Shown here in pieces: positions 5,420-64,000 of a stretch of DNA of 64,000 bases. This DNA is from an uncultured Candidatus Saccharibacteria bacterium (GTDB taxonomy: Bacteria; Patescibacteriota; Minisyncoccia; Phycocordibacterales; UBA918). The stretch covers positions 71,658-135,657 of the forward strand of contig CAZRNZ010000001.1 of NCBI GenBank assembly GCA_964601615.1. Reading direction: 5' to 3'. A program made the position numbers and the translations under genes. Each line of letters opens with the position of its first letter. Within the stretch, counting starts at the first letter, position 1. The notes under the pieces were generated by a model, which had not been told where the DNA came from, did no database searches, and saw only the letters and a list, made by a program, of their open reading frames with translations.

Positions 5420-5494
5420 ACATTAATATTATGTAGCTTATGTTTTGAGTTTTTTCTAAAAAACCGCTCGTGTAATCACGGGCGGTTTTAGTTT

Positions 5495-5755
5495 TTAGAA
5501 GTCGAATTCCTTAACTTCATCGGCTGCTGCTTGGGCTGAAAGAATTGAATAGACAGCAACAGCTGCAATAAGAGCACTGCTGGGTATAGAGTTGGAGTCA
5601 TACCTTTTTACAAATTTTCGAACCTCGTTATATAAAAGAGGATTTTCTCTCTTAAATACCTTTAAAGCAGTTTGGCTGAAAACAGATTTATTGTCTCTGA
5701 TACTTTCCAAGACAGAAGCGAGTGTCTCGGCAGTGACTACCGGCAATTTAGACAT
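5495..5755 (-). CDS. hypothetical small protein (86 aa)
   Basis: ORF followed by the hairpin AACCGCTCGTG..CACGGGCGGTT at 5461-5492. No domain recognised. Confidence 0.4.
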   Translation of the reverse strand: MSKLPVVTAETLASVLESIRDNKSVFSQTALKVFKRENPLLYNEVRKFVKRYDSNSIPSSALIAAVAVYSILSAQAAADEVKEFDF

Positions 5756-5832
5756 CTCAGTCCCCTTCGTAAACTTTTCTGGTTTGGATTATGTGGTTTT
5801 TTTAACAAAAAGTAAATGTTTATATTAACTTT

Positions 5833-5917
5833 CCTATTTTCTGTGCAACATATCTGAAGGAAGCCCCGCAGTATAGCGAGGACTGGCTTTCTGAAGATAT
5901 GTTGTACAGAAAATAGG
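5833..5917. repeat. 85-nt imperfect inverted repeat (29-nt arms, about 26/29 pairing, 27-nt loop)
   Basis: CCTATTTTCTGTGCAACATATCTGAAGGA ... TTCTGAAGATATGTTGTACAGAAAATAGG. The loop itself has AGCC/GGCT pairing. No T-run follows on either strand. Confidence 0.5.
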
Positions 5918-5925
5918 TGTGTTTA

Positions 5926-6177
5926 TTAAATCTTATCTACTGTGATTATCCGGTAGGTAAATGAGTTGATTGTAGCTCGGATTCCTTTTTCTTGGTTTGA
6001 TATGTAAAAATTTTTGCCAATTTTTATAATATTTCTTTCCGGAACTTCTTTTATTGTTTCAAAGACTAGTTTTTCTATTTCAGATTTATTTAAATCTAGT
6101 TTTAGTTTCTTATTGATTCTTTTATAAACTAGTTCCGTATAACAGAGATTTTTTAGAATTTGGCTCTTTGTGTACAT
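5926..6177 (-). CDS. hypothetical small basic protein (83 aa)
   Basis: ORF only. No confident family assignment. Confidence 0.4.
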   Translation of the reverse strand: MYTKSQILKNLCYTELVYKRINKKLKLDLNKSEIEKLVFETIKEVPERNIIKIGKNFYISNQEKGIRATINSFTYRIITVDKI

Positions 6178-6296
6178 CTTTTTATTTTATCAGATTGGTT
6201 TCTATTGGGTGGGCGGCGAAGCCGCCTACCTATTCCTAATTTTCCGTAAAATTCCAGCTTTTAGCGGTTCCTCACTGATTTTGTTAAACTATATAA

Positions 6297-9555: not shown

Positions 9556-9592
9556 ACAAAACAGGCGCGCCCGAAGGGCGCGCCTGTTTTAT
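9556..9592. terminator. bidirectional intrinsic terminator AAAACAGGCGCGCCC-GAA-GGGCGCGCCTGTTTT (GAA-triloop hairpin family)
   Basis: 11-bp GC arms, GAA loop, A4/T4 flanks. Lies between convergent fmt and hpf. Confidence 0.8.
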
Positions 9593-9594
9593 CT

Positions 9595-9960
9595 CTACCG
9601 ATTCCAAATCATCATTTCTTTTATCTTTCTTGCTCCCCTTTTAAACAAAGTCTCTCTCTTTCCTTGAACACTTTGTAGTTTGTTCCAAAGTTCTTCTTTA
9701 GCTTTATCTAAAGCTTTTTCAAATGTTTCATCGGTAGCTTCGGTTCTGTGTAGATCTCCGTTAATCTGAAGATTTATTTCTACACGATGAATATTACCTT
9801 GATTGTGATGATTAGTAATTTTTTCAAATTCTAAATCACAAATTGAATGTGCCTCGCCAATAAATTTGCTAAGAGTAGATAATTTATTTTCAGCAATTAT
9901 CTTTAGATTTTCATCTACCTCAGCGTTAGTAATTTTGAAATTGATATTTGGAAATGACAT
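9595..9960 (-). CDS. hpf: ribosome hibernation-promoting factor (HPF/RaiA family)
   Basis: 121 aa. ...RVEINLQINGDLHRTEATDETFEKALDKAKEELWNKLQ... is typical of YfiA/HPF. Confidence 0.75.
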   Translation of the reverse strand: MSFPNINFKITNAEVDENLKIIAENKLSTLSKFIGEAHSICDLEFEKITNHHNQGNIHRVEINLQINGDLHRTEATDETFEKALDKAKEELWNKLQSVQGKRETLFKRGARKIKEMMIWNR

Positions 9961-9978
9961 AAAAAACTCATTAAATTA

Positions 9979-10203
9979 TTAATCAGTCTCAACAGAAAAC
10001 ATTTTGCTTAAAGAACGATGTCCACTTATTATTTTAACCTTTCCTTTCTGTAAACCAAGCTCATCAGCTAAAAGTTGCCTTACTCGAGTATTTGCCATAT
10101 TCCTCTCGGCAGGTTCTTTTACTTGAATTTTATAAGAAATATCACTTTCTTTAATAACCCTTTCTTTTTTGGAGTCAGGCGTTACCTTCACTTTTATGTG
10201 CAT
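9979..10203 (-). CDS. DUF167 (YggU-like) protein
   Basis: 74 aa. VKVTPDSKKERV...QVKEPAERNMANTRVRQLLADELGLQKGKVKIISGHRSLSKM matches the YggU/UPF0235 pattern. Confidence 0.6.
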   Translation of the reverse strand: MHIKVKVTPDSKKERVIKESDISYKIQVKEPAERNMANTRVRQLLADELGLQKGKVKIISGHRSLSKMFSVETD

Positions 10204-10432
10204 AATTCTTTTGTAGATACTCGATTATGTCATCTGATTCGTACATTTCTGTACCAGTATCTTCATCAACTAAATAAGGAACTTGACGCTTGCCACCACG
10301 ATTAATCAATTCTTCAGCTAGGCCCGAGTCTGAATTTATGTCGAGTAAAGTAAGTTGAACTCCCATGCTTTCACAGGCAGATAATACTTTCTGACAATAT
10401 GGACAAGTTGGTTTGTAGTAAAGAGTAAGTAT
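10175..10432 (-). CDS. glutaredoxin (CPYC active site); start codon uncertain
   Basis: The track ORF starts at ATG 10366. The in-frame codons just upstream encode LTLYYKPTCPYCQKVLSACES, a glutaredoxin N-terminus with the CPYC motif. Between the upstream TAA (10441-10439) and CPYC there is no ATG, GTG or TTG; ATA (10432-10430) and CTT are the only options. Confidence 0.5.
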   Translation of the reverse strand: MLTLYYKPTCPYCQKVLSACESMGVQLTLLDINSDSGLAEELINRGGKRQVPYLVDEDTGTEMYESDDIIEYLQKNYAHKSEGNA

Positions 10433-10583
10433 GTTTAGTTATTTATTTCTGCGTTTGATGTTTCTTTTTCTTGCGCAGGTGCGTGTGCACGTTCTATTAA
10501 TAAATACGCTGCAATGAAAATTGCTAAAAATGTTAGACCGAGTAATGCATAGGCACTTCTCATACTTTTGTATTATACATAAA

Positions 10584-17604: not shown

Positions 17605-17764
17605 AGTTCTGTATTTAAATATTAATCTTTTTTAGTTTAAAAGATTAAACAGGTATATCAACCTTAGTACTACACATATGGGCAGTAGTCTTAATTATCT
17701 TTCAGTTGTCAAGGAAAAGGGTGATGTTTTATAAAACACTCAATTTCTTGAGTGTTTTAAAATG

Positions 17765-17836
17765 CTCCCCGGGCAGGATTCGAACCTGCGACCAATCGAT
17801 TAACAGTCGACTGCTCTACCGCTGAGCTACCGAGGA
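17765..17836 (-). tRNA. tRNA-Asn (GTT)
   Basis: 72 nt. Acceptor TCCTCGG/CCGGGGA, D-loop AGCGGTA, anticodon arm GTCGA-CTGTTAA-TCGAT, T-arm GCAGG-TTCGAAT-CCTGC. CCA is not encoded. Confidence 0.8.
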
Positions 17837-17898
17837 ATTTACTTGTTTGACCAAGTGCACCTATTTTACAGAAAAATAAGATTGTTTCAATAGGGCTG

Positions 17899-17969
17899 TG
17901 GACCCACGGAGAATCGAACTCCGACCTCTTCCATGCCATGGAAGCGTTCTACCACTATACTATGGGCCC
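17899..17969 (-). tRNA. tRNA-Ala (GGC) with G3-U70
   Basis: 71 nt. Acceptor GGGCCCA/TGGGTCC gives the G3-U70 Ala identity pair. Anticodon arm CTTCC-ATGGCAT-GGAAG, T-arm CGGAG-TTCGATT-CTCCG. The D-stem has one mismatch. Confidence 0.7.
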
Positions 17970-22389: not shown

Positions 22390-22569
22390 ATGTCACAGGA
22401 TAGACTAATTAAGCTGGTTTCTAAGGGAGACAAGAATGGTGTTGGAAAAGGTCATACTTACTACACTACTTTTAATAATAAGAACAAGAAAGACCCTAGT
22501 AAGAAGCACTCTGAGCGTAAGTTCAATCCAGTTGCTAAGACGCATACTGAATACGTACAGAAGAAATAA
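22390..22569 (+). CDS. rpmG: 50S ribosomal protein L33
   Basis: 59 aa, below the track cutoff. MSQDRLIKLVSKGDKNGVGKGHTYYTTFNNKNKKDPSKKHSERKFNPVAKTHTEYVQKK matches L33 (GTGHFYTT...KKFDPV..KHV.YKE). Terminator AAAAGCCGCCATTGGCGGTTTTTT at 22571-22597. Confidence 0.8.
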   Translation: MSQDRLIKLVSKGDKNGVGKGHTYYTTFNNKNKKDPSKKHSERKFNPVAKTHTEYVQKK

Positions 22570-22624
22570 GAAAAGCCGCCATTGGCGGTTTTTTGTTTCT
22601 GGTATATATTTATATAGCTTTGAA

Positions 22625-22898
22625 GATGGTCTTCACTGCTTTTCTATCTCAAGGGATATTTGAGAAATGAAGAAGTTCTTTTCGCACGAAACGATTCGGC
22701 AAGCCGCTCTGGCATCCTTGGGCGACATCAACAATTCCTCTGTGACCTCGGCCGCTTCTGACCCCTGGGACCCGTGTGCTGACCTGGCATCCGACAATAT
22801 CGAAGGCTTCAGCGGCTAGCTTTCGGTGTCGAAAGCAGCTGAGGTTTGACCTGCCTAAAACGGTCAGCCCGATTCTCGTAAGAGAATCGGGCTTTTTA
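22625..22898 (+). other. GC-rich island: candidate structured ncRNA and/or 50-codon ORF (22667-22819) with foreign codon usage, ending in its own intrinsic terminator (22867-22898)
   Basis: The largest gap without a called gene in the window (about 400 bp), and locally much higher in GC. Hairpins GCTTTCG-GTGT-CGAAAGC (22819-22836) and TGACC..GGTCA. Terminator GCCCGATTCTC-GTAA-GAGAATCGGGC plus T5. The ORF MKKFFSHETIRQAALASLGDINNSSVTSAASDPWDPCADLASDNIEGFSG has 22 of 50 codons ending in C. Confidence 0.35.
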
Positions 22899-22920
22899 TT
22901 TTTTATATGTGGTAAATAAA

Positions 22921-22950
22921 ATAAGGGCGCAGCAAAGCTGCGCCCTTATT
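22921..22950. terminator. terminator AAGGGCGCAGC-AAA-GCTGCGCCCTT downstream of fba (minus strand)
   Basis: GC hairpin with an AAA triloop and a T-run. Confidence 0.75.
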
Positions 22951-22965
22951 TTATCTCTCTACAAT

Positions 22966-23979
22966 CTATAGACTACCTTGATCAGCTTTACAGTTTCTTT
23001 CTAATACTTCAATAAGTTTTTGTTGGGCTATTAAAACATTTTCTGGTTTCCCTGCCCATGCTTCTTGTACCGGTTGCTCTATTCCGCGAGAAAATGAAAA
23101 GGCTAAAGGCCAATTTAAATTACCGTTTTCTTTTTCCATTTTTCCAATAGCGTTGAAGTTGATAGTTACCTGTTCTGGAGTTTGCCCGCCTGAAAGGAAT
23201 ACAACACCAGCTATTTCGTTTGGTACGCTTGCTTCTAAAGTACGAAGTGTAGCAGAAGCAACTTCCCCTGGAGTACTTTGGATTGGATTTTTATTGCCAG
23301 CTAATACCATGCTAGTTTTAAGAATCACACCTTTCAAATCAACTCTGTATTGATTCATAATGACAAAAAGAGTTCGAAGTGTCAGTGTCGTTACTTCTTC
23401 TGCTTTTTCAATGTTATGAATTCCTTCATATAAAACTTCTGGCTCAACAATTGGCACAATTCCAGCTTCCTGACAAAGTCTGGCGTAACGAGCTAAAAGC
23501 AAACAGTTAAACTTGATACTTTCTATTGCTGGTAAACCATTTGCTTCGTCAATCTTAATTACTGCACGCCACTTGGCTGCTCTGGCACCCATTTTGTAGT
23601 ATTCATCAAGTCTTTCACGAAGTCCGTCTAAACCTTCTGTAATCACTTCACCTTCAAAACCATCGAAAGGCACAGTGCTTTTATCTACTTTGATGATAGG
23701 GATAATTCCTTTAGCAATTAAATAATCAACAAAAGCAGTGCCGTCATCGGTATGATTGCGGATTGTGGCATCATAAAGAATCACACCTGTGATGTATTTT
23801 TCGATATTTGGAGCGGTAAAAAGCAATTGGCGATAAAGACGTCTAGTTTCAGCTTCAGGAGTGGCGCCAATTGCTTCTAGTTGCTTATTCATGGTGGAGA
23901 CACTTTGGTCAGCTGCCAAAATCCCCTTTCCTTCTGTCATTAGAAGCGAAGCGGTTTTGTAGAGATTTTCGTTATTCAT
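22966..23979 (-). CDS. fba: fructose-bisphosphate aldolase, class I
   Basis: KGILAADQS (class I GILAADES motif) with the Schiff-base Lys region; 337 aa. Confidence 0.85.
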   Translation of the reverse strand: MNNENLYKTASLLMTEGKGILAADQSVSTMNKQLEAIGATPEAETRRLYRQLLFTAPNIEKYITGVILYDATIRNHTDDGTAFVDYLIAKGIIPIIKVDKSTVPFDGFEGEVITEGLDGLRERLDEYYKMGARAAKWRAVIKIDEANGLPAIESIKFNCLLLARYARLCQEAGIVPIVEPEVLYEGIHNIEKAEEVTTLTLRTLFVIMNQYRVDLKGVILKTSMVLAGNKNPIQSTPGEVASATLRTLEASVPNEIAGVVFLSGGQTPEQVTINFNAIGKMEKENGNLNWPLAFSFSRGIEQPVQEAWAGKPENVLIAQQKLIEVLERNCKADQGSL

Positions 23980-61555: not shown

Positions 61556-61578
61556 AATTTGTTACAATGTTACCATCT

Positions 61579-64000
61579 ATGAGCGAAAAGAAGTTATCAT
61601 CCGATTTTATTCACCTACATGTCCACTCGCATTACTCACTTCTAAATGCTCTCCCTACCCCAAAAGAGTTGGCAGCTGCAGCTAAAAATGATGGTCAGCA
61701 AGCTCTGGCAATTACTGATAACGGCACGCTTTATGGAGCGATTGATTTTATTAAAGCTTGCGAAGCGCAAGATATAAAACCAATTATTGGAGTAGATGCT
61801 TTCTTGTCGCCTCGAACTCGTTTTGATAAAGATGCAGGAATTGATAAGCCCCGTAGCCGGGTAGTTTTGTTGGCAAAAAATGAAACTGGTTACAAAAACC
61901 TGATTGAGATGGTGACTCGTTCGTACATTGATGGTTTTTATTATCGCCCACGTATTGACCAGGAACTTTTAGAAAAACATCGTGAAGGCCTTATTGTTAT
62001 TGCTCCATCTTTTGCTGGTGAAATTGCTCAAGCTCTAAAAGAAGGAAATACTGAACGCGCTGGTGAGAGGTTAGATTGGTATAAGAGAGTTTTTTGTGAA
62101 GATTTTTATCTAGAAATTACTAATCATCCAGAAATCCTTGATCATAATGAGAATCAAGAAAAAATTAAGAAACTAGCCAAAAAAAATAATGTTCCACTTG
62201 TAGCGGCGCATGATGTTTATTATTTGAAACCAGGAGATGCTATCGCTCGTGAGACGATGATTAAAATTCAGAGTGGTGGAATTGTTGATACTAGTGGCGT
62301 AATGGATGGTGGCGAAGATTTTTCTTTCTTGACTCAAGAAGAAATCAAAAAACGTTTTGCTGATGTGCCAGAAGCTATTTCGAATACTGTAAAGATTGCT
62401 GAAGCTTGTAATGTTGAAATTGTGTTAGGGCAAGATGCTTGGAAGTTCCCTAACTATGTTATCGAAAGTGGTAAAGAGCCAGATGATGAATTACAGGACT
62501 TGGCATACAAGGGTGTTACTTGGCGTGGCATGTCTTTGGATGATAAGGAAACAAAAGAACGTCTAGATTACGAACTTGATGTTATTAGAATGAAAGGTTA
62601 CGCCAAGTATTTCTTGGTGGTAGGAGACTTGCTTCGAGAAGCGCGAGAAAGAGGAATTTTGACGACAATTCGAGGTTCGGTGGCAGGTTCCCTTACTACT
62701 TATGTGTTGGGTATTACTAACGTAGACCCTATTGAGTATAAGTTGCCATTTGAGCGTTTCTTAAACCCAGAACGTCCGTCTGCTCCCGATATCGATATGG
62801 ACTACGCCGATAATCGGCGTGATGAAATTATTGAATATACTAAACAAAAGTACGGTGAGGATAAGGTGGCACAGATTGGTACTTTTGGAACTATGATGGC
62901 GCGTGCTGCTGTGCGTGACGTGGCTCGCGCACTTGGCCATGCTTACACAGTAGGAGATAAAATCGCCAAGCTTATTCCGATGGGTAGTCAGGGATTTCCG
63001 ATGACTATTAAGAAAGCAATGGAGATTGAGCCTGAGCTTGCCAAGCTTTATAAAAGTGAGCCGGAATCTCGTGAAGTTATTGATCTTGCAATGATGATTG
63101 AGGGTCGCGTACGACACCTTGGAGTACATGCTGCTGGTGTAGTGATTTCACCAGAGCCACTTAATCAGTTTGTGCCAGTACAGCCCGACCCGAAGACTGG
63201 AAAACTTATTACGCAATATGAAATGCGTTCTGTTGGTGAAGACGGAGTTGGTCTTTTGAAGTTCGACTTTTTGGGAATTAAAAACCTAGCGATTTTGGCT
63301 GATGCTGTTAAGCGTGTAAAAAAGATTCGTAATATTGATGTGGATATTGAGAATATTCCACTTGACGATAAGAAGACTTTTGAAATGCTTGCTCGTGGTG
63401 AGACTATGGGTCTTTTCCAACTTAACGGTTCAGGAATGACTGCTTTTTTGAAACAGCTAAAACCTTCTACAATTCACGATATTAATGCGATGGTGGCTCT
63501 TTATCGCCCTGGACCGATGGAATCTATTCCGCAGTATATCGAGCGCAAACATAATCCAAGTTTGGTGTCTTATCTCGATCCACGTTTGGAGAATATTTTG
63601 GATCGTTCTTACGGAGTTATTACTTATCAGGACGACGTGATGATGACAGCAATTACGCTGGCTGGTTACTCTTGGCTTGATGCAGACAAGCTCCGTAAAG
63701 CGATGGGTAAAAAAATTCCCGAGGTGATGGAGGCCGAGAAAGATAAGTTGATGAAAGGATTTACAGAATTTGGAAATCTTCCTCCTAATAAGGCAGATCA
63801 ATTATGGAAATTGATCGAGCCTTTTGCAGCGTACGGATTTAACAAGGCTCATGCAGCAAGTTATGGACGTGTAGCATACCAAACTGCGTATATGAAGGCT
63901 AACTTCCCTGTTGAATACATGTCGGCTGTTTTGACTGCTGACTCAGGGGACACAGAAAAGATTTCTGAAATTATCAATGAGTCAAAACGAATGGGGATTG
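61579..64000 (+). CDS. dnaE: DNA polymerase III alpha subunit (5' portion; continues beyond window)
   Basis: Edge-partial, so absent from the ORF track. PHP domain N-terminus (HLHVHSHYSLLNALPTP), then the polymerase core (GVHAAGVVIS, FDFLGIKNL, RPGPME...YQDDVM...FAAYGFNKAHAASY). The antisense track ORFs 62761-63129 and 63457-63801 lie inside it. Confidence 0.9.
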   Translation, partial: MSEKKLSSDFIHLHVHSHYSLLNALPTPKELAAAAKNDGQQALAITDNGTLYGAIDFIKACEAQDIKPIIGVDAFLSPRTRFDKDAGIDKPRSRVVLLAKNETGYKNLIEMVTRSYIDGFYYRPRIDQELLEKHREGLIVIAPSFAGEIAQALKEGNTERAGERLDWYKRVFCEDFYLEITNHPEILDHNENQEKIKKLAKKNNVPLVAAHDVYYLKPGDAIARETMIKIQSGGIVDTSGVMDGGEDFSFLTQEEIKKRFADVPEAISNTVKIAEACNVEIVLGQDAWKFPNYVIESGKEPDDELQDLAYKGVTWRGMSLDDKETKERLDYELDVIRMKGYAKYFLVVGDLLREARERGILTTIRGSVAGSLTTYVLGITNVDPIEYKLPFERFLNPERPSAPDIDMDYADNRRDEIIEYTKQKYGEDKVAQIGTFGTMMARAAVRDVARALGHAYTVGDKIAKLIPMGSQGFPMTIKKAMEIEPELAKLYKSEPESREVIDLAMMIEGRVRHLGVHAAGVVISPEPLNQFVPVQPDPKTGKLITQYEMRSVGEDGVGLLKFDFLGIKNLAILADAVKRVKKIRNIDVDIENIPLDDKKTFEMLARGETMGLFQLNGSGMTAFLKQLKPSTIHDINAMVALYRPGPMESIPQYIERKHNPSLVSYLDPRLENILDRSYGVITYQDDVMMTAITLAGYSWLDADKLRKAMGKKIPEVMEAEKDKLMKGFTEFGNLPPNKADQLWKLIEPFAAYGFNKAHAASYGRVAYQTAYMKANFPVEYMSAVLTADSGDTEKISEIINESKRMGI

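Follow-up and report, generated by a model that had tools for sequence, protein, structure and literature searches.

A GC-rich island between rpmG and a convergent aldolase gene: a probable gene for a small, acidic and disordered peptide in the Kaiserbacteria lineage

What occupies a short intergenic gap that is richer in G and C than any other part of an otherwise AT-rich stretch of genome, and in which no gene has been annotated? The question is raised by a locus on contig CAZRNZ010000001.1 of an uncultured Candidatus Saccharibacteria bacterium, of which a stretch of 64,000 nucleotides, hereafter the window, was analysed. The gap extends from the stop codon of rpmG (22390-22569, plus strand) to the stop codon of fba, a convergent gene for a class I fructose-bisphosphate aldolase (22966-23979, minus strand), with a truB-like gene further upstream, and an earlier sequence-only reading had proposed that it holds an undescribed structured RNA, perhaps 6S-like, or else a small foreign gene. 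The comparison of related loci set out below leads us to think that the island is probably an unannotated monocistronic gene for a small, acidic and disordered peptide, specific to the Kaiserbacteria lineage. Translation of its open reading frame (ORF) on the plus strand is likely, although not proven.

The compositional anomaly is real. The segment 22692-22841 is the GC-richest 150 nucleotides of the window, with 59.3% GC against a window mean of 38.3% (standard deviation 5.2%, for segments of 150 nucleotides), and it ranks first at segment sizes of 100, 150, 200 and 250 nucleotides, which bears out the GC-rich island first noticed after rpmG at every size tried. The 50-codon ORF described there (22667-22819) was likewise recovered, with 22 of its 50 codons ending in C (a fraction of C at third positions, C3, of 0.44). 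Its codon usage had been called alien to the genome, and so it is: the GC content of third positions (GC3) is 0.70, whereas the window's 40 long ORFs average 0.28 (standard deviation 0.04) and none of their 50-codon segments exceeds 0.56, and the C3 of the ribosomal-protein gene rpmG is 0.14.

Read along the plus strand, the gap begins its own unit with a promoter-like site, after which come a stem-loop near the 5' end, a Shine-Dalgarno box, the ORF, two 3' hairpins and, last, an intrinsic terminator; this whole unit is placed between two other terminators, those of rpmG and fba:

22570-22594, plus strand: intrinsic terminator of rpmG, an 11-pair stem GAAAAGCCGCC-ATT-GGCGGTTTTTT that separates the unit from rpmG
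22582-22610, plus strand: promoter-like site TTGGCG-17-TATATT, from a consensus scan only
22621-22635, plus strand: 5'-proximal stem-loop UGAAGA-UGG-UCUUCA, read from the sequence, with its five inner pairs (22622-22634) present in the minimum free energy (MFE) fold
22651-22656, plus strand: Shine-Dalgarno-like AAGGGA, 10 nucleotides before the ATG
22667-22819, plus strand: small ORF of 50 codons and a stop codon, product MKKFFSHETIRQAALASLGDINNSSVTSAASDPWDPCADLASDNIEGFSG
22806-22845, plus strand: hairpin A, GCUUUCG-GUGU-CGAAAGC (22819-22836), within an 8-pair outer helix (22806-22813 with 22838-22845) in the MFE fold of the tail
22847-22866, plus strand: hairpin B, UGACC-N10-GGUCA, which carries the recurring UGACC motif
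22866-22905, plus strand: intrinsic terminator of the unit, a 12-pair stem (22866-22893) with a GUAA loop and a T-rich tail
22924-22946, minus strand: terminator hairpin of the convergent fba, with an A-run and a T-run on its flanks

The promoter-like boxes and the AAGGGA 10 nucleotides upstream of the ORF that the sequence-only reading described are thus confirmed, and the hairpins and terminator are where it had put them. An extended -10 element, TGGTATATA at 22600-22608, can be recognized by eye, and transcription of the unit would start at about 22615-22617. The stop codon of the ORF (22817-22819) stands at the foot of hairpin A, and the fba terminator hairpin probably works in both directions, sealing the unit off from fba. 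The direct repeats that had been described were confirmed in part: CTGGCATCC does occur twice, whereas CTGACC, said to occur three times, is found only twice (22758 and 22779). The shorter TGACC is present four times in the unit, at 22743, 22759, 22780 and 22847. Two further TGACC..GGTCA matches elsewhere in the window both lie inside long ORFs, and no other copy of the unit was found there.

The evidence that carries the argument comes from related loci, which were gathered both by way of aldolase homologues and by way of the small peptides themselves. By its aldolase the source of the window is a Candidatus Kaiserbacteria-like genome. The nearest other genomes belong to Candidatus Kaiserbacteria, a candidate-phyla-radiation lineage, with fba proteins 80-82% identical to that of the window, and the order truB, rpmG, gap and convergent fba is kept across these relatives. 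Apart from the window, seven lineages have a comparable unit between rpmG and fba, in gaps of about 300-680 nucleotides (loci L001 (the same as L094/L095), L002, L003, L087, L088, L091-093/L102-106, L097-101, L108 and L109). Each of these units has its own promoter, a Shine-Dalgarno box, an ORF of 24-62 codons that begins with ATG, 3' hairpins with UGACC and a terminator, and the ORFs keep one place, between the promoter and hairpin A. In most relatives the promoter, TTGACT-17-TGTGTATAAT, is conserved, much stronger than the site in the window and in the same relative place. A hairpin equivalent to the rpmG terminator lies 3' of rpmG at all related loci, and a second hairpin of the fba-terminator kind follows the unit in the relatives as well. 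The units of L087, L097 and L109 have, at the place of the 5' stem-loop, a hairpin with other stem sequences and a UGG-containing loop, as judged by eye and not by a formal count of pairs. In the lineage of L092 and L102 rpmG is inverted and the unit retains its own promoter, which argues that it is an independent transcription unit.

Some details of these loci may be recorded here. The inversion of rpmG relative to truB and the small unit is found in L092 (4168-4347), L093 and L102 (24-203), that is, in DBEA01000015 and relatives; in L091 and L092 runs of N stand exactly at the inversion junction, and the assembly there may be uncertain. Among the relatives, L109 (690-815) alone has some 140 nucleotides between the rpmG stop codon and its terminator.

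At the level of primary sequence the window unit and its counterparts have little in common, and an nhmmer comparison of the window unit with the first relatives detected no DNA similarity. The resemblances are short ones. The start context AAGGGA..TTGA(G)AAATGA of the window recurs in L088 (AAGGGACTTGAAATGA) and L091 (AAGGGAGTTTTGAATGA); the N-terminus MKKFFS of the window corresponds to MK(R/H)SFFS and MRQSFFF in relatives, the conserved N-terminus being M-K/R-x-S-F-F; and a short motif of two hydrophobic residues followed by G-D is common to the window peptide and its relatives. The aldolases recovered when metagenomes were scanned with an aldolase profile were for the most part distant and non-syntenic. 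When 1.84 billion proteins were searched with a profile, the matches were low-complexity ones in long proteins, and no additional short member was credible. Four of the ORFs (P0121, P0122, P0123 and P0126) had already been called by gene callers in public assemblies.

That the ORFs are coding is suggested by several features. Base composition varies with codon position in the window ORF (chi-squared 17.4, P = 0.009 against stop-free shuffles), and this periodicity is individually significant in 9 of 10 elements (pooled chi-squared 203, p = 5e-41) and is not detected in the tails (p = 0.2). Its pattern, carried by the ORF frame in every lineage, is G at position 1 and C at position 3, with A making up only 5% at position 3. 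A purine-rich Shine-Dalgarno-like box precedes the ATG by about 5-10 nucleotides in all 11 related ORFs. Within the subfamily formed by L087, L088, L097 and L109 the ORFs measure 60, 48, 53 and 47 codons (180, 144, 159 and 141 nucleotides), all length differences being in frame, and they end in a common C-terminal Q-L-E followed by the stop codon. The first 12 codons have nine variable sites, six of which fall on third positions, and a single deletion, 3 nucleotides long. The ratio of nonsynonymous to synonymous substitution (dN/dS) is 0.45-0.85 in all six subfamily pairs, compared with 0.04 for fba, although this comparison, like that of insertions and deletions, covers four sequences only, none of them close to the window. 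Comparative evidence and codon periodicity together thus support the earlier suggestion of a small gene.

Several observations nevertheless weigh against such a gene. With a GC3 of 0.70 in a genome of GC3 0.28, the ORF resembles no real gene of the window, rpmG included. A stop-free frame of 49 codons is expected by chance in sequence of such composition with p of about 0.19, so that the ORF taken alone is not significant. As the G1/C3 periodicity looks alike on both strands, the choice of strand depends solely on the promoter, the Shine-Dalgarno box, the ATG and the terminator. Over the whole subfamily ORF, substitutions are equally frequent at the three codon positions, which implies that most of the peptide sequence is nearly unconstrained. 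The window peptide aligns poorly with those of the relatives, and a covariance model of the relatives' 3' tails fails to find the window tail in register, so that the homology of the window unit is supported by its position, its anatomy and a few short motifs only. Inside the window ORF, copies of UGACC fall in three different codon frames, which points to a signal at the RNA or DNA level as well. Finally, two related lineages (L089/L090 and L107) have no unit at all, their rpmG and fba being 38-55 nucleotides apart and apparently served by a single terminator hairpin common to both genes; the unit is thus dispensable.

Coding on the opposite strand was considered and rejected: its frames are open, as the C3/G1 symmetry predicts, yet have neither a start codon nor a Shine-Dalgarno box, and no promoter or terminator serving the antisense strand was seen. 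A weak antisense match to DUF5837 in the window (16 bits, compared with a cut-off of 25) did not recur in eight antisense translations. Within the unit, neither an antisense ORF with a start codon and Shine-Dalgarno sequence nor an antisense promoter-like site was seen, in a survey that was not a direct test for antisense RNA.

The peptide predicted from the window ORF is acidic, with seven Asp or Glu residues and three Lys or Arg, and the peptides as a group, most of them net acidic, have much Ala, Asp, Ser and Gly. The two copies of CTGGCATCC, at 22709 and 22784, are both in the frame of the ORF and code for L-A-S, which suggests growth by internal duplication. AlphaFold2 models of the peptides are of low confidence and disordered; that of the window peptide has a predicted local distance difference test (pLDDT) score of 56, with one helix at residues 7-21 and otherwise no secondary structure, and the peptides evolve fast and are predicted to be intrinsically disordered. 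No family in Pfam, NCBIfam or PADLOC matches any member, in agreement with the earlier statement that the peptide has no recognizable family. An EF-hand-like loop in the L097 peptide, together with a weak XopAW match, was dismissed as coincidence, as it is absent from the other members. A type I toxin-antitoxin system was also considered and set aside, the peptide being acidic and hydrophilic with no transmembrane stretch.

If the island were a structured RNA, one would expect its GC-rich body to fold. Rfam 15 was searched at gathering thresholds over the whole window and in a permissive E-value mode over 22500-23000. At gathering thresholds the window yields two tRNAs only; in the permissive mode the highest score is 28 bits, below the cut-off of 45, and the sub-threshold matches (STnc40, RybB, STnc320 and L20_leader) align with terminator hairpins only, those of STnc40 and STnc320 being the fba terminator hairpin at 22924-22946. 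The units of five relatives have no Rfam match, and ARAGORN found no transfer-messenger RNA (tmRNA) in the search. The absence of RNase P RNA, signal recognition particle (SRP) RNA, tmRNA and ribosomal leaders, which had earlier been judged from hallmark motifs, is thereby confirmed with covariance models and ARAGORN; 6S RNA and the riboswitch families likewise have no match that reaches a gathering score. At gathering thresholds there is no Rfam match either in the further stretches that lack an ORF of at least 130 amino acids (5420-6296, 9556-10583 and 61556-64000).

Folding energies place the structure at the 3' end. Compared with dinucleotide shuffles, the ORF region has a z-score of +1.0 in the window, within a range of +1.0 to -2.4 (positive in 8 of 11 elements), while the 3' tails have z-scores from -3 to -8.7, the last 88 nucleotides of the window unit scoring -5.9. 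The proposal of a structured RNA consequently fails for the GC-rich body, which is no more stable than its shuffles, and holds for the 3' tail only. The MFE structure of 22620-22900 is a chain of local hairpins in which the 5' and 3' ends are unpaired, and with no rod-like fold and an unstructured body the suggestion of a 6S-like RNA is not upheld.

In the relatives the hairpin at or just after the stop codon has other stems (GAUCGC/GCGAUC, GAUCGC/GCGGUC or CGAC/GUCG). TGACC is present in 7 of 7 lineages, with 13 occurrences observed and 3.4 expected (z = 5.2), always shortly 5' of the terminator, while its GGUCA partner lies upstream in some units and downstream in others. In the window, the three TGACC copies within the ORF (22743, 22759 and 22780, plus strand) are 16 and 21 nucleotides apart, and a single GGTCA (22862) is available for pairing. 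In the tails of five relatives, pairing in the four helices amounts to 97.8%, and both partners have changed in six pairs. None of 500 shuffles and no slid register does as well, although fitting the alignment to the model biases this result towards structure. Hairpin B is invariant in the four subfamily members, the ORF middle of which is only about 60% identical. A covariance model of the L087-type tail scores L003 at 22 bits and the window tail at 11.7 bits, the latter out of register, and was discarded as evidence of homology for the window.

The longer tails of L001, L091/L102 and L108 share a block GGAG..CUGACCAACAACCCUG, flanked by a helix that changes from CCCUG/CAGGG to CCCAG/CUGGG in L108, a compensatory substitution. 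This looks like a distinct conserved RNA motif with no counterpart in the short unit of the window. Written in full the block reads GGAG(G/A)AG(A/U)CUGACCAACAACCCUG, the L108 version being GGAGGUGACCGACCGACGACCCAG, and 3' of it come a hairpin and then CAGGG, which in L108 is CUGGG; the block is located on the minus strand at 5150-5330 in L001, about 3560-3700 in L091 and 3230-3345 in L108. It includes a strong Shine-Dalgarno-like box and no conserved ORF. A second ORF in these long tails (K-E-E/K-T/S-D-Q-Q-P) was rejected, since its frame is not preserved from L091 to L102 and has another end in L108.

Where, then, does the GC bias come from? The small ORFs have a GC3 of 0.65-0.94 in all relatives, while the fba genes beside them range from 0.27 to 0.70, and as the excess is present in all lineages whatever the GC3 of fba, it is a family trait and not the trace of one recent transfer. 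The GC-richness arises from amino-acid make-up (Ala, Asp, Ser and Gly) and a preference for C-ending codons, not from RNA folding. At third positions C is much commoner than G, and T than A, unlike the prediction of a symmetric GC bias. Cassette exchange among relatives or a recombination-linked bias could contribute. Two tRNA genes, tRNA-Asn(GTT) and tRNA-Ala(GGC), lie on the minus strand at 17764-17836 and 17898-17969, 5 kb upstream of the unit, and a tRNA-Ala with the anticodon GGC reads GCC and GCU and is cognate for the C-ending Ala codons of the small ORF.

The locus is clearly a mosaic between related genomes, to judge from the divergence of its parts. Between L088 and L097 synonymous divergence (dS) is 0.03 in rpmG and 0.87 in fba, and the ORF middle is about 60% identical; between L091 and L102 the promoter and ORF differ by 1.2%, the tail by 14-22% and fba by 3.7%. 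Such a pattern suggests that homologous recombination is frequent here and that its breakpoints lie within the unit or close to it, and exchange of the unit among relatives by this route is possible. A replication terminus or dif site at the locus was considered and rejected, as the genes of the window point in both directions and GC skew does not switch at the locus. PADLOC gave no match to a defence system.

Against this background the alternatives can be weighed. A recently acquired foreign mini-gene, whose GC3 excess would be the not yet ameliorated signature of a donor, could account for the codon anomaly against the host, for the two lineages that lack the unit and for the mosaic structure of the locus. 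We nonetheless give it very little credence, and the foreign origin proposed earlier is not supported: comparable units in the same position, with the same anatomy and the same GC3 excess, occur in seven related lineages over the whole range of fba GC3, blastn against 50,697 phage and 72,556 plasmid records found no match to the unit, and no repeats or mobile-element genes were found flanking it. No donor-like close copy was found and no exact copy of the peptide is on record, the sole aldolase above 82% identity being a 100% match (P0001) that was taken as the source genome. A purely non-coding RNA, either a new small RNA (sRNA) or one of 6S type, in which the ORF is an accident of GC-rich, stop-poor sequence, also appears very unlikely, if marginally less so. 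It would fit the dedicated promoter and terminator, the GC-richness that stable RNAs often have in AT-rich genomes, the one frame in five or so that would be open by chance and the lack of constraint on most of the peptide. It sits badly with a body no more stable than shuffles, an MFE fold with unpaired ends that is no 6S-like rod, and the lack of any Rfam family, and also with a strong three-nucleotide periodicity limited to the ORF, with in-frame length changes, third-position variation at the N-terminus and dN/dS below 1 in every pair, and with an ATG and Shine-Dalgarno box in 11 of 11 units. Least credible of all is a leader-peptide attenuator or other cis-regulatory element, in which translation of a rare-codon ORF controls the downstream hairpins and terminator. 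In all units the stop codon does adjoin hairpin A, either at its foot or no more than about 20 nucleotides away, where a terminating ribosome would melt the hairpin, and the codons are atypical for the host; but no co-oriented gene follows for such a device to control, fba being convergent behind a second, probably bidirectional terminator in the window and the relatives alike, and no convincing anti-terminator alternative was found.

The strongest competitor, though still an unlikely one, is a dual-function transcript, in which the ORF is translated and the 3' RNA domain of hairpin A, hairpin B and terminator acts as a riboregulator or protein-binding RNA. The case for it is the behaviour of the 3' domain: UGACC shortly before the terminator in every lineage and usually paired with GGUCA, the invariance of hairpin B beside a variable ORF middle, the double-sided changes in the 3' helices (with the reservation about the fitted alignment), the block and compensatory helix of the long tails, and the spread of the four TGACC copies of the window unit over three codon phases. 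On the other hand, the window motif is base-paired and only 5 nucleotides long, hairpins beside a terminator may merely protect the 3' end, the covariance model links the window tail to no other tail, and a regulatory 3' domain leaves the codon periodicity of the body unaccounted for. The gene for a small peptide remains the reading that we prefer.

Many characterized bacterial small proteins are hydrophobic membrane helices, and from many of them the window product differs in being acidic and predicted to be disordered, as does its gene in a third-position GC far above that of the host and in mostly near-neutral evolution. What the unit shares with bacterial small proteins, such as the E. coli and Salmonella sets of up to 50 amino acids covered by two reviews (PMC11429745 and PMC10117436), is that a short ORF stands by itself and has a promoter, Shine-Dalgarno sequence and terminator of its own, and that it is lineage-restricted, without a family and missed by annotation. 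Like 6S, SRP, RNase P, tmRNA and ribosomal leaders it stands out as GC-rich against an AT-rich genome and has its own terminator; unlike them it has no gathering-score match and an unstructured body. SgrS/SgrT, RNAIII/hld and SR1/SR1P are dual-function sRNAs of about 200-500 nucleotides with a small ORF in the 5' part, and the unit resembles them in its predicted transcript size, in the 5' position of its ORF and in having a short conserved 3' motif beside the terminator and a peptide more variable than that motif; it differs in that the motif is of 5-7 nucleotides and, in the window, base-paired, and there is no sequence or Rfam relationship.

A further likeness is to the precursors of peptide pheromones and class II bacteriocins (ComC-type double-glycine, Phr and SHP), which also have 40-60 residues, a conserved N-terminus, a variable remainder and a recombining locus; the motif of two hydrophobic residues, G and D or A loosely recalls the GG/GA cleavage site of ComC-type precursors. 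Unlike double-glycine precursors and those of ribosomally synthesized and post-translationally modified peptides (RiPPs), however, the related peptides have the G-D/G-A motif at a distance from the C-terminus that varies between 1 and 30 residues, with no consistent division into leader and core, and dN/dS is below 1, not above. No gene for a C39-peptidase transporter, a processing enzyme or a sensor was found near the unit, and an ABC-2 transporter neighbour, truB, rpmG and fba are also present where the unit is absent.

If the unit is indeed a peptide gene, its transcript would be made from its own promoter, guarded at both ends by hairpins, and translated into the acidic, intrinsically disordered peptide; the unit looks strongly expressed. 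Selection would act on the semi-conserved hydrophobic N-terminus M-K/R-x-(S)-F-F-S and on the hydrophobic-hydrophobic-G-D motif, while the rest of the peptide would be subject to nearly neutral drift and would gain or lose residues in frame. Like other bacterial small proteins, the peptide would most probably act by binding and modulating a larger partner, to which the N-terminal motif would anchor it while the acidic tail contributed electrostatic contacts. A more speculative and rather improbable scenario is a bifunctional, Kaiserbacteria-specific transcript from a recombination-prone locus, which would combine a translated, rapidly diversifying acidic peptide with a conserved UGACC-bearing 3' RNA domain and in which the C-ending bias would be actively maintained against the AT pressure of the host. 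The bias would then be kept for a reason at the level of RNA or translation that has not been described before, such as the avoidance of A/U-rich nuclease sites or the provision of repeated UGACC protein-binding sites within the coding sequence.

This returns us to what a GC-rich island in an AT-rich genome signifies, which is not necessarily a structured RNA. In bacteria of the candidate phyla radiation genomes are small and the function of many genes is unknown, and to our knowledge their small proteins and regulatory RNAs are essentially uncharted. A unit conserved in position and yet unannotated would add one family to the small genes of this group. The codon anomaly, if real, would in turn be a compact test case for synonymous sites held against mutation bias, with selection on the mRNA, embedded motifs and recombination-linked bias as the candidate forces.

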